From the NCBI GenBank assembly GCA_030591685.1, contig JAUVAX010000003.1, forward strand, positions 744 to 64,743: a DNA stretch of 64,000 nucleotides, in the 5' to 3' direction. Numbering within the stretch: position 1 is the stretch's first letter; every line of letters starts with the position of its first letter. This document shows, in pieces, positions 1 through 14,599 of the stretch. The DNA is from Pseudobdellovibrionaceae bacterium. GTDB lineage: Bacteria; Bdellovibrionota; Bdellovibrionia; Bdellovibrionales; UBA1609. The translations under genes and the position numbers were made by a program. The notes below the pieces were generated by a model. The model was not told the origin of the DNA, did no database searches, and saw only the letters and a list, made by a program, of their open reading frames with translations.

Positions 1-122
1 TTAGGCAGCTAAAGGTTGTAAGTCGTTTCCAACTACAAAGTTGCTCGTTTTTATAGAGGACCTCGAGCGCCCCTGCATGCTCCCAAAAGTTTCGTCACCC
101 GTGTCGAAGCCATATCGCCCCC
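1..122 (-). ncRNA. ssrA: tmRNA (SsrA), 5' portion only; the gene continues past the window start
   Basis: The reverse complement of 1-122 reads GGGGGCGATATGGCTTCGACACGGG..GCATGCAGGGGCG..CCTCTATAAAAACGAGCAA..GTAGTT GGA AAC GAC TTA CAA CCT TTA GCT GCC TAA. This is colinear with the E. coli ssrA acceptor strand, PK1 and resume region as I recall them. The tag frame (1-30) encodes GNDLQPLAA-stop. Confidence 0.85.
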
Positions 123-3224: not shown

Positions 3225-3600
3225 AGGTTTCACCCCACCTAACCCCTTAAAGTTACGTACACATAGGGAACTTTTAACAATTTGTGACACAAAAAATGTC
3301 ACCGTTGTTGTTTGAGGGCCGCTCCGTTTTTTTAATGCCCTTGCCCTTTAATAATCACCTGTAATTTTTTTTACGTTTTTTAAGCGGCCCTAGTCACTGG
3401 CAAGGCCTTTCACCTTAACTCGATGGCATAGGGGTCACTAGTAAACCTATGGCTCGCTATTAAAAACACCGTGCGCTCTAAGGGCTATATAAGTATGGCC
3501 GCCTTAACATCGTGATTGTGCTTGAATAAATTTTGTTTGAATTGTTTTTTAACAGTGGGCCTTGCTGCGAGCCTGAGAGTCCGGCTCTTAACGACTCTAA

Positions 3601-3972
3601 TTACTCGCCGTCCTCAATGCCTAAAAGTTCACTATCTACGGGGATCACTCCACAGGTTTGCTCTAAGAGCTCCAGTGTGTCGTTGTAGACTCTTTTTTGC
3701 CGCTGTACAACCTGCAGGGCTTTTTGCATAGATATAGATGTTTTACCCCGACGGGCTCTTTCAAAATCTTTATATGTTGTCTCTGCTCGTTGAAGCTTTA
3801 TCTCTTCGTTTTTAAGTGACTTTTCTAACCGTACAAGTTCACGGGCCAGATCAAAGCTTAAGCCCTCGTAAGACACGTCACAAACTCGGTCCTGTTGAGG
3901 CTCTGAGGTGTAAGCATAAGTCGCCCCCGGAAGGGCAAATACTACGAGTAAACTTAGTAGTGTTAATTTCAT
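3601..3972 (-). CDS. Small secreted protein, unknown function
   Basis: N-terminal signal peptide (LLVVFALPGATYA). Strong AAGGAGAG Shine-Dalgarno. Two Cys in a charged, helical-looking mature part. Confidence 0.6.
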   Translation of the reverse strand: MKLTLLSLLVVFALPGATYAYTSEPQQDRVCDVSYEGLSFDLARELVRLEKSLKNEEIKLQRAETTYKDFERARRGKTSISMQKALQVVQRQKRVYNDTLELLEQTCGVIPVDSELLGIEDGE

Positions 3973-4209
3973 TTTAAACTCTCCTTAAAAATAGCCCCCT
4001 GTATTTTACTTAAAACTCACACCCGCCCATTAAGAATAACAGCATAATAACACTAACCTTTCGCCGGCAACAGGGGGTTGAAAATAAGTTAAAGACCCGT
4101 TAAAAGCGTCTAAAACTTATACGCCTACGGGCCTCTTAATGTATGAGCTCGTCAAAATAATACTCTTATGCCACCAAATACACGAAAAAAAGCACGCGCT
4201 AAAGGCCTA

Positions 4210-5226
4210 TTAACAACAGGAGGCTTTAGACGCTGGGGGCTTAAACAAGCCCTTGTGAGCACTTTGGTCACCTTGGATTTTAAAATAATTTTTAAACCGC
4301 GTTTGCTGTAATATGTTGGCTGTATTGCCACAAACAGGCTTGGGCTTGTCTCTATTAAAGGTGTAGTTTTCGTCTAACATAAAGCTCTCAGGGCTTTCTT
4401 TTATGCCGCCAATATAGGTGGCTTGTTGGCCGTAGTCCTCTGGGCGGTCCTCAAGGCTTACTTTAAAAGCTCTCACTGTAATAGAGTAAAAATCTATGTC
4501 CTTTAACTGTTGCTCGATCTGCTTTGAGAGAAGATCTAGCTTTCTTTCGTTCACAACCCTGTAGTCGTCAACCCCTAGAGAGTTCAAAATTCGTCTGAAG
4601 TCCTCAGTGTAAAGAGCCCCGCCTAAGCATTCGCCTAATAACACCGGGTCTTTTGCTAAATGCTCTGGGATTCGGCGAGATGAAAACACATCTGAAAAGT
4701 AAAGCTCCCCACCGGGCTTTAAGACCCTGAAGATTTCTTTAAATACTTGTTCTTTGTTGTCGGCTAAATTGAGTACGCAGTTAGAGATCACAACGTCCAC
4801 AGAGTTATCCTCAATACCGAGGGCTTTTAAGTCTTCCATGAACCCGTACTTAAACTCAACGTTAGGGGCTGAAAGTTCGAATTGTTTTTGGTGGTACTCA
4901 ATGTGGCTCTCGGCGACTTTGATTTGCTCTTTAGTCATATCAACGCCAATAACTCGGCCCTCAGGCCCTACGAGTTTTGAGGCTATAAATACATCTCGCC
5001 CCGTACCCGAGCCTAAGTCTAAAACTGTTTTGCCCTCAAGTACAAAAGGGATCGGAGACCCGCAGCCATAAAACTTATCTAATACCTCGGTGTGAATTTT
5101 GCTCATTATAGGCTTTAGGTAGCTGGGCATAGACTCTGCCGTACAGCAAGCTGTTGTTTGCAGGTCTTCTTTAGAGCTTAATACTTTGCCGTAATAGTCT
5201 TGTATGTTTTCAGTGTTTGATTTCAA
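4210..5226 (-). CDS. arsM: Arsenite S-adenosylmethionine methyltransferase (ArsM family)
   Basis: SAM motif I VLDLGSGTGRD. Cysteines in the ArsM-typical contexts: ACCT, FYGCGSP, ISNCVLNL, LLGECLGGAL. Sits 24 bp downstream of arsS on the same strand. Confidence 0.75.
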   Translation of the reverse strand: MKSNTENIQDYYGKVLSSKEDLQTTACCTAESMPSYLKPIMSKIHTEVLDKFYGCGSPIPFVLEGKTVLDLGSGTGRDVFIASKLVGPEGRVIGVDMTKEQIKVAESHIEYHQKQFELSAPNVEFKYGFMEDLKALGIEDNSVDVVISNCVLNLADNKEQVFKEIFRVLKPGGELYFSDVFSSRRIPEHLAKDPVLLGECLGGALYTEDFRRILNSLGVDDYRVVNERKLDLLSKQIEQQLKDIDFYSITVRAFKVSLEDRPEDYGQQATYIGGIKESPESFMLDENYTFNRDKPKPVCGNTANILQQTRFKNYFKIQGDQSAHKGLFKPPASKASCC

Positions 5227-5250
5227 GGTGGTTCTCCTTTAAAAAAGTTT

Positions 5251-6210
5251 TTAAGTTAATGTCCCGCCACATGAGCTGCCAGCACCGGCTGTGCAACCAT
5301 AACAGTGGTCCGCTAAAGCTATTTTAGTTTTTTGAAACTCGCTAAGAGTCTCAATATCCCAAAGGGATGTTTTTTTATTTGCAATGGGTATTTCTAACAT
5401 TTGGTTAAAATCGCAATCATAAACAAACCCGTCCCAGCTAATTGAAACAAGCTCCCTACACATCACAGCACCTGCTGCTTGAGCGTTAAAGCTATTAACT
5501 AAGAGCTGTGAGTACTCTTCGTACTTGCCTTGCCTTTTAAGGTCTTGGAGAAATCTTTTTATTGGCATGTTGGTGATCGTGTAAAGGTTGTTAAAGGAAA
5601 TATTAAATAACTCTTTGAGTTCCGTTTTGTATTGGGCTTGCAGCGTTTGCTCGTCAGGGGGTAAAAATGGCCCCAAGGGGTTGTAGACTAAATCAAGCTC
5701 TAACCCGGTGCCCTCTTTAGCGTAGCCTAAGTTGTTTAATATTTTTAACGCCTCTATGCTTTTGCCAAAGACCCCGCGGCCCCTTTGTTGTTCGACGTTT
5801 TCTTTTGTATAACAGGGCAGTGAGGCCACTACCTTTACCTGATTGTCCGCTAAAAACGCGGGGGTGTCTTTTTGGCCGGGCTCAAAAAAGACCGTCAAAT
5901 TACAACGGTCAATAACTTGCTTGTTGCGTGCACGTAACTCAGTGACGAAGTAAAAAAAGTGCTCGTTCATTTCAGGGGCACCGCCGGTAATGTCTACCGC
6001 AGTGATTGCTGGCGAGGCATCAATAAGCTCTAATAAACGTTGAACTGTTTTTTTAGTCATGTTTTCAGTGCGCTTTGGGCCGGCCTCAACATGACAATGC
6101 AAACAGGCCTGGTTGCAGAGCTTGCCAATATTAACCTGTAAGGTCGTGACCGGTTTGCGGCTTAAATCGACCCCTGATTTTTTAATTGTCTGTGCAAACG
6201 AAGTGAGCAC
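5251..6210 (-). CDS. arsS: Radical SAM / Cys-rich C-terminal protein, ArsS-type (arsenosugar biosynthesis family)
   Basis: CX3CX2C radical-SAM motif CNQACLHC. Cys-rich C-terminus DHCYGCTAGAGSSCGG, typical of the ArsS family. GTG start preceded by GGAGG. Confidence 0.7.
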   Translation of the reverse strand: MLTSFAQTIKKSGVDLSRKPVTTLQVNIGKLCNQACLHCHVEAGPKRTENMTKKTVQRLLELIDASPAITAVDITGGAPEMNEHFFYFVTELRARNKQVIDRCNLTVFFEPGQKDTPAFLADNQVKVVASLPCYTKENVEQQRGRGVFGKSIEALKILNNLGYAKEGTGLELDLVYNPLGPFLPPDEQTLQAQYKTELKELFNISFNNLYTITNMPIKRFLQDLKRQGKYEEYSQLLVNSFNAQAAGAVMCRELVSISWDGFVYDCDFNQMLEIPIANKKTSLWDIETLSEFQKTKIALADHCYGCTAGAGSSCGGTLT

Positions 6211-6726
6211 CTCAAGCCTCCCCGGCTAAAACAAAGAAAGCAAAATCTAATATATGCTTTAGATAAAGTAAAGCCTTTGGGCCCCGGAGTTCAGGGTTTC
6301 TCTGTAAGAGGCCTGAAAAAGGGCCTTTAGCCCCTTTGGGGTCACGTTATTTATGGCCCTTTTTTTAACTCATTCGAGGTGAAGGGCCAGTCATCAAGCC
6401 CCCCTTTAAACAGGAGGCTCGCTTCGCCCTGAGGACCCTAGGTTATTAAAAAACACACCCCTGTTACTAGGCGCATGTAGGGTTCACTTTGATCCCCCAA
6501 CGTAGCAGCACCTATTTTTTACGACGAAGGTCTAGCAGCGTCTCAATATGATAGCCCCCCCTAAACCATGGTCCAGTAAAGAGCTTTTACAAAAAATTGA
6601 GCTCTTCTAAAGTCTTGTACTAATTCGGACCAAAGTACCACAAAGGTCTAAGTATTCCCCCGAAGGTATCGATGAGTGTTTTGTCCCAGACTTGATTTAA
6701 GTCTTAACAGAACAACTGAGGTACCT

Positions 6727-8562
6727 ATGATTAGCAAAATATTTTTCAGCACCGTAACCTTATTTAGCCTTTCTGCTTTTGCCCAAGAGGACCTCCGTCA
6801 AATGAGCTTTGACCAGCTTGAAATCATAAATCAAGGCATTGTCCTCCCCTCAATAGGAGACCAGGGCCTTACATATATAGGTCGGCCCTCGGCTAATGAT
6901 GACGGCTCTATTATACCCACAGGTGAGCACTTTAAAAACCCAGACAACGATTGTAGTGCTGATAAAATAGAAAGTGTGATTAAAAATTTTGAAGGTACAA
7001 ACAACCAACTGTCTCGCCATATTTCTAAATGGACGAAGCTTTGCGCCCCTCAGTTGACTAACTACACGGCGCTTGGGGCCGTTTTACGCTTTTCGATGAT
7101 TAAGTACCCCATACATCTGAATACTAAAATACATTACGTTAAATTTAAATTACGTAATGGGCTTTATGTACAGGGTTTACTTGGGATCAAAGACCTCAAT
7201 ACCCCCCGGCCCCTTATAATCATAAAGTGTGGCCTATACTGCGATGCTGATGACTCGGCCTCTATAAAAAACGCCTTTATGCATTTGTTTGATGAAGGCC
7301 CGTTTAACGTCCTTGTTCTCTCAAGCAGCAGTGGTCGGCACTTTTCGTTCGACAACCACAGTGTTGCTTTTGGTGGGTTTATTGAGGGGGATCAAATTAT
7401 TCAAGTTGCAGAAATTTTAACCTCTGAGAGGTCTTCGTTAAAAGGCCTTATTAGCGGGATTCATATAAATGGTATTAGCCTTGGGGGCAATGCCGCTTTA
7501 ATGGCCTCTGTTTATGCCTCACATAACCCGCACATCCCTATAAAAAGCGTTGTGGCCTCGTGCCCTGTGGTCAGTTTAAAACCTACTATGAACAGTATTT
7601 TTAAAAACAACCTGCGTGGCGCCTACTTTAGGTTAGAAACAACAGGTCATATTAAAGCCGTCTATAATCAGCTCCCTGGCCTTAAAAAATACCTGTCTAA
7701 AAAAAATGACTTCTCGTGGAGTCAGTCAAAAATTTTTAACGCGCTTTCAAGAAGTTCCTTTGATTTTCATAAAGAAATTACTCGAGCACGCCCCTGGACA
7801 ACGCCCCCCTTTAGCGGTGTCGTTGTCACAGACCCTGAACAGTTGTGGAATTTAAATGATTTTACTAACTTTACAGATCAGGTCACGATCCCCACAACAG
7901 TGCTTTACTCTTCTGATGATTATTTTGTACTCGATAAGTTCAATGCCAGGCCCCTTAAAAGAAAACTAGCCCAATCACCCAACCCAAACATTGGCGTGTT
8001 AGATGTTCGGCGCGGTAATCACTGTGGCTTTAGCATGGGCATTGGCTGGAGTATTTATTCAAAAATGATTAACGGGCTGTTTATGAAATATGATGACTCC
8101 AATAAGTACCGTGCCGATAATATCATACAAGTCACTGACCGCTCCTCAACCTGGAGGCAAGACGGCGGCCGTAAGGTAAGACGCCTTTACCGTGAGGATG
8201 TCGTCATTAAATCCTCTTGGAGAGTGGATTTAAAACAAAAAGTCGCCAAGCTTATTACATACGTTTTCAACCCCTTTAACCGCAGAGCCCGCGCAAGAGA
8301 CACGGGCCGCTCACAGTGCCGGCAGTACCAGTCTCAGCCTTTTAATGTGCCCGCTAAGTGTTTAGACAAAATTATAACATCAATACCCCTTAGAAGCCTC
8401 GCAAGCCTCAATGTTAACCAGGTCAACAGCAAATTTGAGGCAAACCGCCTAACTCGGTGGCTGAATACGAGCACAAAGATCACTAATCGTAATTTTAACA
8501 CCATAAGAGGCGGGAACTCTCTACCCCAAAACCTACACTTTACGAGAGAATATGAGTTTTAA
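6727..8562 (+). CDS. Secreted alpha/beta-hydrolase-fold protein with basic C-terminal extension
   Basis: The ATG at 6727 gives the signal peptide MISKIFFSTVTLFSLSAFA. Nucleophile elbow GISLGG, later SSDDYF and RGNHCGF in Ser-Asp-His order. About 170 aa of Arg/Lys-rich tail. The ORF-track start at 6676 lacks a signal peptide. Confidence 0.6.
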   Translation: MISKIFFSTVTLFSLSAFAQEDLRQMSFDQLEIINQGIVLPSIGDQGLTYIGRPSANDDGSIIPTGEHFKNPDNDCSADKIESVIKNFEGTNNQLSRHISKWTKLCAPQLTNYTALGAVLRFSMIKYPIHLNTKIHYVKFKLRNGLYVQGLLGIKDLNTPRPLIIIKCGLYCDADDSASIKNAFMHLFDEGPFNVLVLSSSSGRHFSFDNHSVAFGGFIEGDQIIQVAEILTSERSSLKGLISGIHINGISLGGNAALMASVYASHNPHIPIKSVVASCPVVSLKPTMNSIFKNNLRGAYFRLETTGHIKAVYNQLPGLKKYLSKKNDFSWSQSKIFNALSRSSFDFHKEITRARPWTTPPFSGVVVTDPEQLWNLNDFTNFTDQVTIPTTVLYSSDDYFVLDKFNARPLKRKLAQSPNPNIGVLDVRRGNHCGFSMGIGWSIYSKMINGLFMKYDDSNKYRADNIIQVTDRSSTWRQDGGRKVRRLYREDVVIKSSWRVDLKQKVAKLITYVFNPFNRRARARDTGRSQCRQYQSQPFNVPAKCLDKIITSIPLRSLASLNVNQVNSKFEANRLTRWLNTSTKITNRNFNTIRGGNSLPQNLHFTREYEF

Positions 8563-8667
8563 CCCACAATAAGCATTGGTTTTTAAAAAATAGAGCCCCT
8601 TAATATTGATCACGCGCCAAAATTATGAATATAATTAAAGGGCAGTATTAAAAAAGGGGCGCGTAGC

Positions 8668-8838
8668 TTGAAACTCTCTAAAATTATAACTCTTAATTTT
8701 TATTTTTTAGCCCTTCTCGTTATTGTTTACTCTATGTTTACCCTTAAAACTAAAGGTCTACCGCCAGGCCTTGAGACGCTTTTTGGTTTTGAACACCGCG
8801 CCCAGGCCCCCATTATGCCCAAAAGCCCCTTTAAATAA
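8668..8838 (+). CDS. Possible 56-aa single-pass membrane protein (below ORF-track cutoff)
   Basis: TTG start 7 nt after AAGGGG. One hydrophobic helix (FYFLALLVIVYSMF). No homology recognised. Confidence 0.3.
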   Translation: MKLSKIITLNFYFLALLVIVYSMFTLKTKGLPPGLETLFGFEHRAQAPIMPKSPFK

Positions 8839-8937
8839 CGACAAATTTTGTCATCAATTTATTAAAACTACACACCCCTTATGAGAAAAATATTCAACTT
8901 CTAGGTGTTTTAAAAAACACATGTTAAACCTCTCTTT

Positions 8938-9420
8938 ATGAAAATTTTTGTTTGTTTGTTTTTTTTCTCAAGCCTCTTCTTTTTTGGCCCGGCAAAGGCT
9001 CAGCGTATTGCTAAACTAAATATCGCTACTGAAAATGTTTTTGCCACGCTCTTAAAAGACTTTAAACAGGCTAAACCCCCCACCTCTAAAATTTATAATA
9101 AAAAATGGGTGTGTGAGTTTTACGGGGCTCGCTCGCGAGCGCGGCGCCCGCGCCCCTCTCACCTTTACGAGTTTAAAGGCACTAATGGGGTTAATTTTGG
9201 CTCACAATTAGTTAAAGTTTATCGCCCCAACAAGCAGCTTGGTTGGGTGGGCAAAAGATCTATTTATACCGACGTTATCCGAATGACAAAAGGGAATCAG
9301 TTAATTGCCGAGCTGTCAGTGCCACAAAAGACCGTATCAGCCCCTCTGCAGCCCTCTTTAGTTATTGCCCAGCACGAGGCCATCGCCTACGCTCGGTGTA
9401 GCTCAAAAGCGATAAACTAA
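8938..9420 (+). CDS. Secreted protein, unknown function
   Basis: Clear signal peptide (FVCLFFFSSLFFFGPAKA). No recognisable domain. Confidence 0.55.
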   Translation: MKIFVCLFFFSSLFFFGPAKAQRIAKLNIATENVFATLLKDFKQAKPPTSKIYNKKWVCEFYGARSRARRPRPSHLYEFKGTNGVNFGSQLVKVYRPNKQLGWVGKRSIYTDVIRMTKGNQLIAELSVPQKTVSAPLQPSLVIAQHEAIAYARCSSKAIN

Positions 9421-9542
9421 CCCCCCTTAATGTTAGTGCTTTAATATTGTTTCCATCTTCTTATGGGACCTCAGCCCCCTCTTTTTAATTGCCTTTAAAT
9501 AGCCCCGGAAGTAGGGTTGTTTAAAGGCAGGGGGGGCGTTTA

Positions 9543-10289
9543 GTGAAGTTTTTAATTTTTTCGACTTTATTATTTTATTCTTTCACTCAGGCTACGGCCC
9601 AACCAATGACTGATGCTGAGCTAAAGGCTCTTTTAAAAAAAGTAGACCGCATTTATCGCTCCGACACTAGCCACTCCACAATGACAATGAAAATTAAAAC
9701 CCCCCAGTTTGAGCGATCACTCACTATGGAGAGCTGGACAAGGGGGCTTGATTACACTTTTATGACTATCCTGGCCCCGGTTAAAGATAAGGGCATTAGT
9801 ACGTTAAAACGAAAATCGAAGATGTGGAATTACTTTCCAAAAATTAATAAGGTCATAAAAATACCCCCTTCGATGATGTTGAGCTCTTGGATGGGCTCTG
9901 ATTTTACAAATGACGACTTTGTAAAGGAAAGCTCCTATCAAGACGATTACTTTGCAAAACTATTAAAGCGCACTAAAGTGATGGTCTCTATTGAGCTCAC
10001 CCCAAAAAGCGATACCAGCTCACTTTGGGGCAAGGTTATTATCGATATACATGCCGCCAAGTACTACCCCATAAAGCAAGTTTTTTACGATGAAAGTGGC
10101 GAGAAAATAAGAACCCTTGAGTTTAGCCATGTTAAAGCCCTAGGGGCTCGCATGGTCCCCATGAAAATGACCCTCACGCCTCATCATAAAAAAGACCAAT
10201 ATACTGAAATCTTATATAATAAAATTGATTTCGATGTGCCCCTGAAGGCCTCTGTTTTTACTCGGAGAAATCTGCAAAAGAGGAGATAG
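9543..10289 (+). CDS. LolA-like outer membrane lipoprotein-sorting family protein
   Basis: Signal peptide. Family-typical stretch KGISTLKRKSKMWNYFPKINKVIKIP...WMGSDFTNDDF. First gene of a tightly packed five-gene operon. Confidence 0.7.
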   Translation: MKFLIFSTLLFYSFTQATAQPMTDAELKALLKKVDRIYRSDTSHSTMTMKIKTPQFERSLTMESWTRGLDYTFMTILAPVKDKGISTLKRKSKMWNYFPKINKVIKIPPSMMLSSWMGSDFTNDDFVKESSYQDDYFAKLLKRTKVMVSIELTPKSDTSSLWGKVIIDIHAAKYYPIKQVFYDESGEKIRTLEFSHVKALGARMVPMKMTLTPHHKKDQYTEILYNKIDFDVPLKASVFTRRNLQKRR

Positions 10290-10293
10290 TTTT

Positions 10294-11505
10294 TTGATTT
10301 TCAAACTCGCCCTAAGAAATATTTTTAGGCAAAAGCGGCGCACTGTTTTAACTATAATGATGATGTGCTTTGGCTACACGCTATTGGCCTTCACCTATGC
10401 CCTCAGTGAGGGCAGTTATAATAGCATTATTGAGGCGTTCACTTCTCAATCAACGGGGCATCTGCAAATCCATAATAAGTCTTACCTTGAAAATCAAAAC
10501 CTTTTTTATAGTATTACTGATGCCCCTAAAATGATTCAAAACCTTGAGCGTGATAAAAGCATCAAAGCTGTTTCGGCCCGAATTACGGGGGGCGCTTTGG
10601 CCTTTGCCAATAATAAAACAGCGGGCGTAAAAATTGTTGGTTTTAATGCCCTTAAGGAGCAAGCCCTCACCCATTACGAAAACAGAGTTTTTGAAAAAGA
10701 TAGCACCATCAATGGACCCTCTGGCACTTATGTTTATATAGGTAAAAAGGTGGCTCGCATTTTAAAGCTTAAGCTCGGTGACTCGTTGGCTATGATCTCA
10801 AGTGGGGTCGACGGCTCCATTGCCAATGATTTATACACAGTCAAAGGCATTATGAAAGGCTCGCCTTTTGACGACAACAGTGTTTATTTGGGCCTTAATG
10901 CCGCTCAGGAGTTTTTTAGCCTTCACAACCAGGTGACCCATGTTTCTGTTTTACTACACAACATTGGCTCCTTCCCTGCTGCGGTAAATCGTATGGCCCC
11001 ACTTTTATCAAACACTAAATACATTGTTCGCCCTTGGCAAAAGATAGAGTCTAGTTTTTACAAAGCGATGGAGGCCGACAAAAAAGGCAATACCATAACA
11101 GAGTTAATTATAGTCTTAATGGTAAGTATTGGGGTGTTAAACACTATTTTAATGTCCATGCTAGAGCGAACCCGCGAATTTGGTCTTTTAAAGGCCCTCG
11201 GCACAAAACCCCTGCAACTCGCCGGGATGGTCACTCTCGAGGTACTGTTGACCTCTTTTATAAGCCTCGCCATTGGCGTCGTGCTTGCCTATGCGGTAAT
11301 TTATTATTTTTCAATTTTCGGTATTCAGTACTCTGAACCCATGACCTATGGGGGGATGACCTTTTCAGAGCTCACTGTTGAGTTTTCTACAAAGGCCTTT
11401 TTGCGGCCTGCTGTGGTTATTTTATTATCAAGCGCATTAGTAGCTCTAGTCCCTAGTTATAGAGTTTTAAAACTCAAGCCCATTGATGGCTTAAAGGATT
11501 TTTAA
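10294..11505 (+). CDS. ABC transporter permease, FtsX/MacB/LolC-E type (1 of 2)
   Basis: N-terminal TM, a large extracytoplasmic domain, then the C-terminal FtsX TM bundle (REFGLLKALGTKP). 4-nt gap to the upstream gene. Confidence 0.8.
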   Translation: MIFKLALRNIFRQKRRTVLTIMMMCFGYTLLAFTYALSEGSYNSIIEAFTSQSTGHLQIHNKSYLENQNLFYSITDAPKMIQNLERDKSIKAVSARITGGALAFANNKTAGVKIVGFNALKEQALTHYENRVFEKDSTINGPSGTYVYIGKKVARILKLKLGDSLAMISSGVDGSIANDLYTVKGIMKGSPFDDNSVYLGLNAAQEFFSLHNQVTHVSVLLHNIGSFPAAVNRMAPLLSNTKYIVRPWQKIESSFYKAMEADKKGNTITELIIVLMVSIGVLNTILMSMLERTREFGLLKALGTKPLQLAGMVTLEVLLTSFISLAIGVVLAYAVIYYFSIFGIQYSEPMTYGGMTFSELTVEFSTKAFLRPAVVILLSSALVALVPSYRVLKLKPIDGLKDF

Positions 11506-12735
11506 ATGATTGGGCTACCTTTGTTTTTAAAACTCGGACTTAGAAACGTTTTTAGAAACAAACGTCGATCAGCCCTTGGTGCCTTTGCCGTAGGCATAGG
11601 CTTGGCCTCTCTTATTACCGCCGATGGGTTTATGAGGGGTATGGAGCAAAACTTAATAAAGCTCACCACCACATCTCTTTTGGGCGAGGGGCAGGTTCAC
11701 AATAGAGCGTTCGTTGAAACTATGGACTCTGACTTTCCCATTGCTGAGCCTTTAAAAACCGAGGCTCTTATAAAAAGTGACCCACACGTTGTGGCCTATT
11801 CTAAACGCGTTTTATCTTTAGGCATGGTGGCCTCAACGAAGAGTTCAAAAAATATTCTAATCTACGGCATTAACGGCGAAAAAGAAAAGCAAGTGAACTC
11901 TGTGCATCGATTTATCTCAGCAGGTCGGTTTATTACGCACAAAAAAGATCTTGTACTTGGCCAGCGTTTAGCTAAAAAACTTGATGTTCAACTTAATGAC
12001 AAGGTTACTATTACGACAAGTGAGGCTCACACGGGCGAGTTGGCACAGGCGGTATTTAGAGTCTCGGGGTTTATACACTTTGGCTCTAAAGAGATTGATG
12101 AGGGCCTCGTCTTTATACATTATAAAGCCGCACAAGATCTTCTTGGCATAGGTCATGAGTTTCATGAAATTGTATTAAAATTTGACTCTCTTAAAGCAGC
12201 CTCTGATAAAAACCTGACCACGTGGGCAGCCCTATCAAGTCAGCATAATATCGCTGAGTCTTACAGAAGCCTAGCCCCAGGCATGGATTTTATGACCGAA
12301 ATGATGGGCTTAAGCTCTTTAATTATGGGGTCTATACTTGGGGTTTTAGTCGCCCTTGGGATTATGAATACCCTGTTTATGTCTATCTTTGAGCGACTTT
12401 TTGAGTTTGGCGTTTTAAGGGCTATCGGCACTAGAGGTCTAGATATTTTTAAAATGATTTTATGGGAAGCCTTTTTTTTAGGCCTACTCAGTGTTGTTGC
12501 CGGGTTTTTTATGGCTCTTATTTTTGCCGGCTACCTGGGGGTTTATGGTGTCGATTATGGAGGTATTGAGTTTAATGCCGTCACTTTTAGAGAGCCCATT
12601 TATTACCTCTTTCAATGGTCCCATGTTTGGCTGCTACCTGCGGTCTTAATTATTTTTATTTTAATAACCGCCATTTACCCCGCAATATATGCGGCTCGAT
12701 TAACCTTAAGCGATGCTATGAAAAAATCATTATAG
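11506..12735 (+). CDS. ABC transporter permease, FtsX/MacB/LolC-E type (2 of 2)
   Basis: Same architecture as the first permease (FEFGVLRAIGTRG). The ATG directly abuts the preceding TAA. Confidence 0.8.
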   Translation: MIGLPLFLKLGLRNVFRNKRRSALGAFAVGIGLASLITADGFMRGMEQNLIKLTTTSLLGEGQVHNRAFVETMDSDFPIAEPLKTEALIKSDPHVVAYSKRVLSLGMVASTKSSKNILIYGINGEKEKQVNSVHRFISAGRFITHKKDLVLGQRLAKKLDVQLNDKVTITTSEAHTGELAQAVFRVSGFIHFGSKEIDEGLVFIHYKAAQDLLGIGHEFHEIVLKFDSLKAASDKNLTTWAALSSQHNIAESYRSLAPGMDFMTEMMGLSSLIMGSILGVLVALGIMNTLFMSIFERLFEFGVLRAIGTRGLDIFKMILWEAFFLGLLSVVAGFFMALIFAGYLGVYGVDYGGIEFNAVTFREPIYYLFQWSHVWLLPAVLIIFILITAIYPAIYAARLTLSDAMKKSL

Positions 12736-12744
12736 GTAAACACT

Positions 12745-13440
12745 ATGGATAACGAAATTATTTACGATGTAAGAAATTTAAATAAAGTCTTTGGCGCTAA
12801 CGAGAACACTAAAGTGTACGCCAACCGTAATATCAACTTAAAGGTCCGGCGAGGGGAGTTTATGGCGATCATTGGCCCCTCTGGGTCTGGCAAGTCAACG
12901 CTATTAAACATTATTAGTGGGCTCGACACCCCCACTTCTGGCGAAATACATTTATCTGGTCGGCTTATGTCAAAACTCTCCGGCTCAGAGCTCGCCCAGT
13001 TTAGACGAGACCATATTGGGTTTATTTTTCAAGCCTATAACTTAATACCCGTTTTAACGGTCACTGAAAATATTGAGTATGTTTTAGTCCTTCAGGGTAA
13101 AACAAAACCTCAAAGAGAGGCCGCTGTTAAAGAAATTTTAAACCTTGTGGGCCTTAGTGGTTTTGAGCATAGGCTACCAGCAGAGCTCAGCGGCGGACAA
13201 CAGCAACGAGTAGCGGTCGCCCGTGCCGTTGTTACAAAACCAGATATTATTTTAGCCGACGAGCCCACGGCAAACTTAGACTCTAAAACCGGAGAGGAGT
13301 TGATAGACATGATGCTCGAGTTAAACAAAAAATATAAGACCACTTTTATTTTCTCTACCCACGATCAAATGATCATGCGTAAGGCCCGAAGGCTTGTAAC
13401 ACTTAAAGATGGGGCTGTTTTATCTGATGAAACGCGCTAG
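12745..13440 (+). CDS. ABC transporter ATP-binding protein (LolD/MacB-type)
   Basis: Walker A GPSGSGKST, signature LSGGQQQRVAVARA, Walker B IILADEPT. Confidence 0.9.
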   Translation: MDNEIIYDVRNLNKVFGANENTKVYANRNINLKVRRGEFMAIIGPSGSGKSTLLNIISGLDTPTSGEIHLSGRLMSKLSGSELAQFRRDHIGFIFQAYNLIPVLTVTENIEYVLVLQGKTKPQREAAVKEILNLVGLSGFEHRLPAELSGGQQQRVAVARAVVTKPDIILADEPTANLDSKTGEELIDMMLELNKKYKTTFIFSTHDQMIMRKARRLVTLKDGAVLSDETR

Positions 13441-14599
13441 TTTATTATTTTTTATTTTTTTCGGCCTTTACCCCTTAACAGGATTCGCGTTAGAGACTCG
13501 TGGGTACACTATACTACAGGCCTCCTCAGCGGGTCTCCGGACAAGTGTTCAAAAAAATGTGTTTGCTCATTTTGAACTCGCCAACATTAACCGCCTTAAC
13601 CTACTTCATGAAAGTAGCGGCATGACTTATGAGCTCGGCCTTGAGCTCAACCAAATCTACGAAACAAACGATCTCACGCAAAGCTCTCCGTACAGTAATT
13701 TAAAAACCCCTTACCGCATTTTTAGAGAAAACCCTGTTTTAAACCTAACCACTTTAGAGCAGGATAACTATTTACTCTTAGGCCAGGTTGATAGGCTTAC
13801 TTTAGAGTACCAAGGGCTAAGCTCTTCTTTTATTTTTGGGCGACAACAGATTAGTTTTGGGGCCTCTAAGTTTGTGTCCCCCCTTGATGTTTTTGCCCCC
13901 AACAACCCCTCTAGCATAAACACTGAGGAGCGCTCCGGGGTCGACGCTGCACGATTTAAAACCTCTATTGGCGAAATGGGTGAGTTTGGCCTTGGGGTCG
14001 TGATGGGGCAAAACTTAAGCGAAAAAAAATCGGCCGCTTTTTTAAACCTCAAATACAGCTTTTATAATATTGAGTTCGAGGCCTTAGCGGCTCGCTACTT
14101 ACAGGTAAATATGCTCGGCCTTCAGGTGCTTAAATCTATTTACGGTACTAATACATGGATAGAGTTGGCTTATAATGAGGGTCAATACACTCGATTTACC
14201 GTGGGCACTGAGTACCAGTGGTCCCCTCGGTTTTATACCGCTGCCGAGTATCACTATAATGGCGCTGGTAAATCTGAGGTTTCAGGTTATCCTTTGGCCC
14301 TTGCCGAGTTTTCGTTCACTTCAGTGTCTGTTTTTTTACTCTCAAAAAATTACTTAAACGTATTGTTGGGGTATCAGCTCTCCCCACTTACGTTTTTATC
14401 TGGCAGGCTAACAAGTAACCTACTAGATCACTCTTACTTATTTAGCCTTGGGGCTACAAAAAGCTTAAGCAATAACTCTCAAAATGACTTTGGGATTACG
14501 TTAGGTATGGGCCCCAAAGGCTCGTCATTAAGCCTTGTGCTCTCTGAGTTTGGGCACTACGGTGCTCAGGCCTACTATAAATATAAATACTTTTTCTAG
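13427..14599 (+). CDS. Predicted outer-membrane beta-barrel protein
   Basis: The ATG at 13427 gives the signal peptide MKRASLLFFIFFGLYPLTGFA. Alternating beta-strand pattern and a C-terminal YKYKYFF aromatic terminus. Overlaps the ATPase stop by 14 nt. Confidence 0.65.
   Translation: MKRASLLFFIFFGLYPLTGFALETRGYTILQASSAGLRTSVQKNVFAHFELANINRLNLLHESSGMTYELGLELNQIYETNDLTQSSPYSNLKTPYRIFRENPVLNLTTLEQDNYLLLGQVDRLTLEYQGLSSSFIFGRQQISFGASKFVSPLDVFAPNNPSSINTEERSGVDAARFKTSIGEMGEFGLGVVMGQNLSEKKSAAFLNLKYSFYNIEFEALAARYLQVNMLGLQVLKSIYGTNTWIELAYNEGQYTRFTVGTEYQWSPRFYTAAEYHYNGAGKSEVSGYPLALAEFSFTSVSVFLLSKNYLNVLLGYQLSPLTFLSGRLTSNLLDHSYLFSLGATKSLSNNSQNDFGITLGMGPKGSSLSLVLSEFGHYGAQAYYKYKYFF

Follow-up and report, generated by a model that had tools for sequence, protein, structure and literature searches.

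The window analysed here, a stretch of 64,000 nucleotides from the genome of a Pseudobdellovibrionaceae bacterium, contains an intact bicistronic operon in which arsS, coding for a radical SAM protein, precedes arsM, coding for a methyltransferase. The pair is a reduced two-gene form of a larger cluster that is kept by relatives. Probably, it has long been resident in the lineage and would encode a truncated pathway that leads to DDMAA or the corresponding ribose and serves the low-level neutralisation of arsenic.

Architecture of the arsS-arsM operon

The features of the locus are listed in Table 1. Both reading frames are located on the minus strand, and the distance of 24 bp between arsS and the downstream arsM, which the first-pass annotation had given, is correct. 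The operon ends after arsM, because the gene that follows the 237-bp spacer has its own ribosome-binding site. Upstream of arsS, the distance to the divergently oriented ORF is 465 bp if this ORF starts with the GTG at position 6676, and about 516 bp if it starts with the signal-peptide ATG at position 6727.

Table 1. Features of the arsS-arsM locus (window coordinates).
Feature	Position	Strand	Description
spacer after arsM	3973-4209		237 bp; operon end
arsM	4210-5226	-	TTG start, 338 aa; putative As(III) S-adenosylmethionine methyltransferase of the CmArsM/AS3MT type; C27, C55, C150, C200 and C-terminal CC
intercistronic spacer	5227-5250	-	24 bp; AGGAG ribosome-binding site 5238-5234, 7 nt before the arsM start
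arsS	5251-6210	-	GTG start, 319 aa, radical SAM; CX3CX2C and C-terminal DUF3641 Cys-rich domain ending SSCGG
arsS ribosome-binding site	6211-6223	-	GGGGAGG 6223-6217 (GGAGG Shine-Dalgarno 6221-6217), 6 nt before the GTG
divergent intergenic region	6224-6726		regulator or promoter not identified; several G+C-rich hairpins at 6270-6480

The divergent intergenic region occurs as a single copy within the genome. The earlier statement that the 465-bp gap holds no recognisable regulator was confirmed: the gap contains no ORF of at least 40 amino acids that might code for a hidden small regulator, no sigma-54 site exists between positions 6211 and 6726, and an Rfam search of the region upstream of arsS yielded zero matches, whether gathering thresholds or E ≤ 1 were applied. 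The fold z-score of this region is -2.1 and thus marginal. A riboswitch or leader RNA was dropped as a candidate on the grounds of the empty Rfam search and this z-score, covariation analysis being impossible without a close relative. Pseudogene remnants of a Pit transporter, an MTA phosphorylase (MTAP) or a transferase were also sought on both flanks of the operon; sensitive tblastn searches returned noise only.

Family assignment of ArsS and ArsM

In an NCBIfam profile search, the radical SAM protein matched TIGR04167 with 446.9 bits (E 3e-134; profile positions 2-303 of 303), which is above the curated equivalog cut-off of 300. The best radical SAM family after TIGR04167 reached 38.8 bits. 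Judged from its sequence, the protein is a member of the ArsS family, and this assignment is far beyond chance. The first-pass annotation had called it ArsS-type on account of the motif CNQACLHC and a Cys-rich tail; both are present, and the profile search proposed there placed the protein above the threshold and no other family ahead of it. Matches to PF04055 and to PF12345/DUF3641 (the latter with 186.4 bits, residues 183-317) complete the domain composition. The cluster motif CX3CX2C (C32, C36, C39) is invariant in 56 homologues, as are C251, C266, C303, C306 and C314. The Cys-rich tail DHCYGCTAGAGSSCGG comprises residues 301-316; the terminus reads SSC314GG, which is the cysteine form and not the selenocysteine form of the terminal Cys/Sec-Gly-Gly motif. 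Every column that is invariant across the 56 homologues is retained. The AlphaFold model (pLDDT 89) has twitch/SPASM radical SAM enzymes as its nearest solved folds (TM about 0.57), and this likeness of the predicted structure shows the general architecture only. There is no solved structure of an ArsS; the best sequence match among solved structures is YydG/EpeE (E 2e-4). In public records, homologues from Bacteriovorax and Bdellovibrionales carry the name "arsenosugar biosynthesis radical SAM protein ArsS".

The closest solved counterpart of the methyltransferase in a PDB sequence search is CmArsM of Cyanidioschyzon (4fr0/4kw7; 340.7 bits, E 8e-101), to whose chain residues 22-354 the residues 5-333 of the window protein were aligned. 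Further PDB matches are 5evj (2e-87) and 8xt7 (3e-69). The N-terminal, As-binding and C-terminal domains of CmArsM (PDB 4fr0, 4fs8, 4kw7) are all matched. C27, C55, C150 and C200 align to C44, C72, C174 and C224 of CmArsM and are invariant in relatives; the earlier claim that the As(III)-binding cysteine contexts are kept is thus correct for ACC (residues 26-28), YGCG (53-56), SNCV (148-151) and GECLGG (198-203). The SAM-binding DLGxGxG motif reads VLDLGSGTG (residues 68-76). The full-length homology to CmArsM stands, whereas in the profile search that had been suggested as a check the score stays below the cut-offs of all NCBIfam ArsM models, namely NF008823 (198.5 versus 263 bits), NF040538, the model for the arsinothricin-type ArsM (187 versus 500 bits), and NF038099, the cyanobacterial "AsSugarArsM" (118.5 versus 400 bits). 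Close homologues in public records are mostly named "methyltransferase domain-containing protein" and in some cases "arsenite methyltransferase". By alignment, the arsM product is a true arsenite methyltransferase of the CmArsM/AS3MT type. In contrast to CmArsM, which is a stand-alone detoxification enzyme of a red alga, it is encoded in translational linkage to arsS.

In the ArsL-ArsM arsinothricin pathway of Burkholderia gladioli, arsenic is likewise the target of an ArsM and a radical SAM enzyme that jointly use SAM. ArsL, a non-canonical member of the radical SAM enzymes, transfers a 3-amino-3-carboxypropyl group. The window protein differs from it in matching the ArsS profile, and no ArsL model is among its NCBIfam matches.

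Distribution, reduction and origin of the gene pair

The survey covered 41 genomes from the same family or order and 401 genomes of the phylum from 203 genera. ArsS scored above the cut-off in 14 of the former and in 66 of the latter, these 66 representing 45 genera. In 24 of the 401 genomes, arsS is directly followed by arsM, with gaps of 12-68 bp, apart from a single gap of 274 bp, where the arsM match is partial. Other non-photosynthetic phyla contain at least 600 ArsS loci. The pair had been considered unusual for a non-photosynthetic bacterium of apparently predatory type; given these counts and the homologues already annotated, this view is not supported. The arsS-arsM pair is common in Bdellovibrionota and belongs to a described type of enzyme pair. 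A search of the open-access literature found no paper that mentions both arsenosugars and Bdellovibrio.

In relatives, the corresponding cluster contains a Pit-type transporter, arsS, arsM, a paralogue of MTA phosphorylase, transferases of the families TIGR04283 and TIGR04282, and an ArsC-like protein; it often adjoins a VTT/DedA-fused flavoprotein disulfide reductase. Clusters of the NCBIfam arsenosugar gene set were seen in the relatives G001, G003, G028, G034 and G036, and the ArsM proteins of the relatives' clusters are 59-63% identical to that of the window. The NCBIfam set (TIGR04167, TIGR04283, TIGR04282, TIGR04169) is complete in the control genome of Synechococcus elongatus. The window shares with it an ArsS above the equivalog cut-off, and none of the additional cluster genes was found at the locus: TIGR04282 and Pit are missing, no TIGR04283 gene is linked, and neither an MTAP paralogue nor an ArsC-like gene is clustered with the pair. 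The source genome, a draft in 98 contigs that is rated 100% complete, yielded no homologue of TIGR04282, TIGR04169 or Pit and no TIGR04283 gene of the cluster type; such absences are not proven, because the assembly is a draft. For comparison, TIGR04282 is present in 54 of the 66 ArsS-positive genomes of the phylum. The first-pass annotation had proposed an arsenosugar biosynthesis module. What remains of this proposal is that the first two steps appear to be encoded; the accessory genes are absent from the locus, and no TIGR04282 was detected genome-wide. Pairs of TIGR04282- and TIGR04283-like genes also occur in relatives that lack ArsS (G005, G023, G024), and the absence of these families is therefore weak evidence on the end product.

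The disappearance of the accessory genes from the locus and the failure to find a regulator or a clear promoter are features that one would expect if the pair were a non-functional remnant of the ancestral cluster in the course of decay. We regard decay as very improbable, since both ORFs are intact, all invariant columns and the catalytic cysteines are kept, and both genes are preceded by strong ribosome-binding sites. Furthermore, the state without TIGR04282 recurs, as it is found in 8 of the 52 genomes of the phylum sample that possess both ArsS and ArsM.

Synteny, phylogeny and base composition bear on the origin of the operon. In G029, which belongs to another family, an ArsS of 57% identity adjoins a counterpart of the five-gene LolA-like/FtsX/ABC/barrel operon that lies beside the pair in the window (27-61% identity). 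In the ArsS tree, the window protein groups with sequences of relatives, the nearest of which originate from the same order and phylum; the SH-aLRT support of this clade is only 81-89%, and it includes some MAGs labelled Pseudomonadota. Many inter-phylum placements are seen in the tree as a whole, which requires 24 label changes compared to a minimum of 10. This mixing of phyla would be compatible with a recently acquired mobile arsenic island, and so would the GC3 of 0.47 of arsS and arsM, which corresponds to the 98th-99th percentile of the genome's ORFs. Such an acquisition is nonetheless quite improbable: the neighbouring genes (positions 6727-14599) have a similar GC3 of 0.40-0.46, the codon-usage distance of the pair is ordinary (39th-59th percentile), no mobile-element genes or repeats were found at its borders, the synteny with G029, which is from another family, extends to its position beside the Lol-like operon, and its closest sequences come from the same order and phylum. 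Composition was rejected as evidence of a recent transfer, as the high GC3 is shared by the neighbours and codon usage is ordinary; synteny and local composition speak against such a transfer. Taken together, the synteny with G029, the ArsS tree, and GC3 and codon usage support a long residence of the pair in the lineage.

Predicted chemistry and arsenic handling

In Synechocystis sp. PCC 6803, SsArsS is reported to act with SsArsM in the initial steps of the pathway, and the two genes to be co-transcribed (PMC8552651; bioRxiv 10.1101/2022.09.23.509062). ArsS is described to adenosylate DMAs(III) to DDMAA, from which adenine is removed afterwards (PMC13598754; bioRxiv 10.64898/2026.04.29.721666). 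As in the window, the Synechocystis genes (Xue et al. 2019, as cited in PMC8552651; ArsS chemistry in PMC13598754) are reported as an adjacent, co-oriented pair of a methyltransferase and a TIGR04167 enzyme. The window pair differs in its order, which is arsS then arsM, in its ArsM, which is of the eukaryote-like CmArsM/AS3MT type, and in its host, which is non-photosynthetic and Bacteriovorax-like. From the characterised Synechocystis enzymes we infer that the chemistry would be the same, that is As(III) to DMAs(III) to DDMAA. ArsM would methylate arsenite twice with SAM, yielding dimethylarsenite, DMAs(III). ArsS, whose activity is predicted from family membership and linkage to arsM, would then convert DMAs(III) and SAM to DDMAA, the first committed arsenosugar intermediate.

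A substrate of ArsS other than DMAs(III), such as a thiol-bound species or another methylated metalloid, for example selenium or antimony, has to be considered. The family TIGR04167 was originally defined as a (seleno)protein family, ArsM-type enzymes methylate other metalloids too, and in G007, G009, G040 and G020 ArsS is paired with a TIGR04169 peroxidase-like protein and has no adjacent arsM. In the window, however, arsS is in tight translational linkage to a gene for a CmArsM-type enzyme with As(III)-binding cysteines, and in the tree its product belongs to the arsM-linked and not to the peroxidase-linked clade. An alternative substrate is therefore highly improbable.

With respect to the steps after DDMAA, a housekeeping-type MTAP is encoded on contig C27 (266 bits; 44.5% identical to the MTA-phosphorylase paralogue of the cluster). 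This enzyme could release dimethylarsinoyl-ribose. An ORF on contig C55 was read from its sequence as a putative MtnA. The genome's best TIGR04283-like gene is a full-length one on contig C82 that is not linked to arsS and reaches 135.6 bits at a cut-off of 182. The last steps of the pathway might yet be supplied by this gene or by unrelated enzymes.

It is conceivable that the C82 gene, the housekeeping MTAP and scattered enzymes complete the pathway and yield ordinary arsenosugars or arsenolipids. Besides the presence of these genes and of the putative MtnA, this would be in line with the genomic context of the C82-like long-alignment type in relatives, where it adjoins arsS (G020) or ArsM (G009, G015, G025) or lies within the cluster (G027). 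On the other hand, the C82 gene has neighbours unrelated to arsenic, at E ≤ 1e-3 no tblastn match links it to the transferase of the cluster type from a relative (L025), and TIGR04282, so frequent in ArsS-positive genomes of the phylum, was not found. A complete pathway is thus unlikely. Since the clustered transferases, the transporter and the phosphorylase paralogue are missing, the pathway most likely stops at DDMAA or its ribose; the end product would be DDMAA or dimethylarsinoyl-ribose and not a finished arsenosugar.

The absence of classical ars resistance genes, which had been noted for the surroundings of the pair, was corroborated and extended: arsR, arsB, acr3 and arsC are not present near arsS-arsM, and neither Acr3 nor ArsB was found in the whole source genome. 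In contrast to organisms with a classical arsR-arsB/acr3-arsC operon, this genome possesses no detectable arsenite efflux pump, and its ArsR-family and ArsC-like genes are both unlinked to the pair. The ArsC-like gene, on contig C98, codes for an LMW phosphatase with 111.8 bits (cut-off 174.3). The single HTH_5/ArsR-family protein was rejected as an ArsR, as it is BigR-like and adjoins a rhodanese on contig C87. Likewise, the single PF03773 protein was not accepted as an ArsP-type exporter of organoarsenicals, as it resembles SaoE or Cu/Zn efflux proteins and adjoins the putative MtnA ORF. The lack of a detectable Acr3 is not peculiar to this genome. It applies to 74% of the 401 genomes and predominates within the phylum, whether ArsS is present or not.

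As neither an arsenite pump nor dedicated arsenosugar transferases were found, arsS-arsM may be the sole arsenic-handling system of the cell. DDMAA is an arsenic analogue of methylthioadenosine. A minimal detoxification by methylation and adenosylation, which ends in DDMAA and is distinct from arsenosugar biosynthesis, is possible but somewhat doubtful. If it exists, DDMAA would be exported as such or fed into the methionine-salvage enzymes MTAP and putative MtnA. The truncated pathway that we favour would provide a low-level route for the neutralisation of arsenic, given that searches of the genome detected no arsenite pump.

By itself, the finding matters little, as the enzyme pair is known, common in the lineage and already labelled in public records. 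The extra genes of the relatives, i.e. the MTAP paralogue, TIGR04283, TIGR04282, Pit and the VTT-fused disulfide reductase, are candidates for the steps after DDMAA, and the two-gene version of the window is a natural minimal comparison for the contribution of these genes. The finding also documents that predatory Bdellovibrionota often carry ArsS and ArsM. Because Acr3 was not detected in roughly three of every four genomes surveyed, the formation of organoarsenicals may be a main way in which predatory Bdellovibrionota handle arsenic.

Identity and layout of the arsS-arsM pair

The radical SAM protein of the pair is ArsS. It matched the full NCBIfam profile TIGR04167 ('arsenosugar biosynthesis radical SAM (seleno)protein ArsS') with 446.9 bits at a cut-off of 300, whereas the runner-up radical SAM family in NCBIfam reached only 38.8 bits. 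The first-pass annotation had observed the pair and named both genes correctly, and all motifs it quoted are present where it had placed them; a sub-threshold score for ArsS and a better fit to another family, which it had considered as grounds for rejection, are contradicted by these scores. The protein comprises the domains PF04055 and DUF3641 (PF12345, 186 bits). Every column found invariant among 13 relatives and across an alignment of 56 sequences is retained, including C32, C36 and C39 and, towards the C-terminus, the five cysteines C251, C266, C303, C306 and C314. The AlphaFold2 model is confident (pLDDT 89.1, pTM 0.89). Its closest solved folds are the twitch/SPASM-type radical SAM enzymes BlsE, SkfB, SuiB, EpeE, anSME and MoaA (TM about 0.55-0.57, 12-16% identity); a PDB search with the window ArsS found no ArsS structure.

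By sequence comparison, the second protein is an ArsM of the CmArsM type (Cyanidioschyzon arsenite methyltransferase). The CmArsM crystal structures 4fr0 and 4kw7 align along its whole length (340.7 bits, E 8e-101), and C27, C55, C150 and C200 are the counterparts of CmArsM C44, C72, C174 and C224 in the alignment. Relatives share these four cysteines without exception, as they do the SAM motif VLDLGSGTG and a C-terminal CC. All NCBIfam ArsM models scored below their cut-offs (NF008823, 198.5 versus 263; NF040538, 187 versus 500; NF038099, 118.5 versus 400). The nearest public homologues (58-66% identity) stem from Bdellovibrionales, Leptospira, Parachlamydiales and glomeromycete fungi, and are named 'methyltransferase domain-containing protein' or 'arsenite methyltransferase'.

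Features of the arsS-arsM locus and its surroundings in the window
Feature	Position	Strand	Remarks
tmRNA gene, 5' part	1-122	-	RF00023, 55.4 bits; cut by window edge
arsM	4210-5226	-	TTG start, 338 aa; AGGAG seven bases before start
arsS	5251-6210	-	GTG start, 319 aa; GGGGAGG six bases before start
G+C-rich hairpins	6270-6480		several; terminator-like shapes on both strands
Divergent neighbour of arsS	6727-8562	+	exported/secreted hydrolase-like protein, 611-628 aa; GISLG serine-hydrolase-like motif, basic C-terminal tail
LolA-like/FtsX/FtsX/ABC/barrel operon	9543-14599		five genes

The two genes are separated by 24 bp. A spacer of 237 bp follows arsM; after it comes the gene of a small exported protein, unrelated to the pair and preceded by a separate ribosome-binding site. 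The divergent neighbour of arsS had no Pfam or NCBIfam match in a family profile search, and no homologue of it adjoining arsS was found in relatives. The divergent intergenic region upstream of arsS (465-516 bp) contains no Rfam match, sigma-54 site or small ORF, and its sigma-70-like matches are weak. Its hairpin stretch occurs only once in the genome, and no close relative exists to compare it with; the fold z-score (-2.1) is marginal. In all, 14 terminator-like structures were counted in 3400-6800, compared to 4.2 expected.

Occurrence and origin of the pair

The first-pass annotation regarded such a pair as unusual in a non-photosynthetic, predatory-type host. This view is not tenable: ArsS scored above the cut-off in 14 of 41 genomes of the same family or order and in 66 of the 401 genomes (45 of 203 genera) of a phylum sample. 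A CmArsM-like ArsM occurs in 14 of the 41 (E<=1e-30) and 86 of the 401 genomes (E<=1e-40), and both proteins occur in 52 of the latter. Immediate succession of arsS and arsM on the same strand (gap <300 bp) was found for 27 pairs in 24 of the 401 genomes. Three phylum genomes carry two separate adjacent pairs each: G065 (contigs C46, C55), G194 (C4, C5) and G324 (C46, C60). The top named ArsS matches (64-70% identity) are records of Bacteriovorax stolpii, Bacteriovorax sp., Bdellovibrionales and Oligoflexales, many already labelled 'arsenosugar biosynthesis radical SAM protein ArsS'. Beyond the phylum, a pattern search covering a single genome of each species yielded at least 600 ArsS loci. 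The best 80 of these (49-62% identity) belong to Myxococcota, Nitrospirota, Planctomycetota (including anammox bacteria), Binatia, Acidobacteriota, Bacteroidota, Verrucomicrobiota, Gemmatimonadota, Omnitrophota and many Pseudomonadota. The window locus is ordinary: it belongs to a known pair and could already be annotated as such.

The claimed lack of classical ars genes holds genome-wide. The window occupies positions 744-64743 of contig C63 in a 2.66-Mb draft genome (98 contigs, rated 100% complete), which gave no match to Acr3 or ArsB. This genome encodes one Spx/ArsC-family protein (contig C75) and one LMW-phosphatase/ArsC-like protein (C98) with a CTHNSCRS motif, which scored 111.8 bits at a cut-off of 174.3. 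The only ArsR-family protein is BigR-like and adjoins a rhodanese; the only PF03773 permease is similar to SaoE or to Cu/Zn efflux proteins and adjoins an ORF read from sequence as MtnA. ArsB was found in none of the 41 genomes of the same family or order, and Acr3 in nine, including three of the 14 with ArsS. In the phylum sample, Acr3 was found in 106 of 401 genomes (26%) and, by hand count, in 17 of the 66 ArsS-positive ones (26%). In this phylum it is thus normal for pumps to be missing, whether or not ArsS is present.

In the ArsS tree, the window sequence falls into a weakly supported group (81-89% SH-aLRT) of mostly same-order genomes, a Bdellovibrionaceae MAG and a few MAGs labelled Pseudomonadota. 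A second ArsS type (G007, G009, G040), paired with a TIGR04169 peroxidase-like protein, groups with Bacteroidota. In G029, a genome from another family of the same order, arsS (57% identity) has the Lol-like operon of the window as its neighbour, in identical order and orientation and with identities of 27-61%. Both genes of the pair have a GC3 of 0.47, which is high by the standard of this genome (mean 0.384, sd 0.042); adjacent genes are at the same level (0.40-0.46), and the codon usage as a whole is unremarkable. Tree grouping, synteny and composition thus lead us to read the pair as a probable case of long residence with differential loss, not of recent transfer.

Reduced locus and predicted end of the pathway

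In relatives (G001, G003, G028, G034, G036 and partly G026 and G029), arsS and arsM are embedded in a conserved cluster of 8-10 genes, exemplified by locus L025 4017-15207 (G036:C43) and likewise by L024, L026, L027 and L028. Its further members are a PHO4/Pit-type transporter, a paralogue of MTA phosphorylase (MTAP; TIGR01694, 299.8 bits), an 'arsenosugar biosynthesis glycosyltransferase' (TIGR04283, 180.8 bits, cut-off 182), a CofC-like protein (TIGR04282, 132.4 bits, cut-off 134), a 227-aa protein with no assignment and an ArsC-like LMW phosphatase. A VTT/DedA-fused MerA-like flavoprotein disulfide reductase, glutaredoxin, a DUF547 protein and AhpD-like proteins are found nearby. Among the best 80 loci outside the phylum, arsM (25/80), the VTT-fused reductase (22/80) and the two transferases (12-14/80) also lie within 6 kb of arsS.

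The window's genome contains no homologue of TIGR04282, TIGR04169 or the Pit transporter. The one TIGR04283-like gene that it has lies unlinked on C82, and the one MTAP, of the housekeeping type, on C27. The VTT, reductase and DUF547 genes persist away from arsS-arsM (C79:2227-5184), where VTT/DedA (231 aa) and the reductase (493 aa) have separate ORFs that share 11 nt, with DUF547 coming next; in relatives the former two are one fused protein of about 713 aa. No pseudogene remnants were found flanking the window pair. A TIGR04282-like gene occurs in 54 of the 66 ArsS-positive genomes of the phylum sample, and eight of the 52 genomes with ArsS and ArsM lack it. G029 represents the complementary loss: it kept arsS, both transferases and a stand-alone VTT protein (L034 458-8937, G029:C35, JACTMU010000039.1), and has no ArsM anywhere at E<=1e-30. 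What the window retains is a minimal remainder of the larger cluster found in its lineage, and this alone sets the locus apart.

A second type of cluster occurs in several relatives (L126 2827-8992, G027:C1; G025:C27, G019:C32, G015:C115, G009:C30), most of which are devoid of ArsS; G009 combines this cluster with ArsS. The ArsM of the G027 cluster shares 61% identity with that of the window, and its neighbours are a non-ArsS radical SAM protein (Rv1681-like with 90.9 bits, against only 63 bits for TIGR04167), a PstSCAB-like importer of oxyanions and a TIGR04283-like transferase.

According to two reports, SsArsS and SsArsM act together at the start of arsenosugar synthesis, and their genes are co-transcribed (PMC8552651; bioRxiv 10.1101/2022.09.23.509062). 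A third describes the redox-neutral addition of the 5'-deoxyadenosyl radical of SAM to dimethylarsenite, DMAs(III), by ArsS, which yields DDMAA (PMC13598754). Adenine removal comes later and permits derivatisation of the ribose (bioRxiv 10.64898/2026.04.29.721666). By analogy with this characterised family, the window's ArsM and ArsS would produce DMAs(III) and then DDMAA. We rate this narrower claim as highly probable because the alternative, in which scattered enzymes finish arsenosugars despite the reduced locus, has the same first two steps. As the dedicated later genes are missing, the pathway would end at DDMAA or at the dimethylarsinoyl-ribose that might be set free by the housekeeping MTAP. 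A caveat to this end point is that TIGR04282/TIGR04283-like pairs exist without ArsS in G005, G023 and G024, the arsenosugar role of both transferases being putative. The whole explanation, truncated end point included, appears moderately likely. The MTAP paralogue and the transferases of the relatives' cluster are concrete candidates for the steps after DDMAA.
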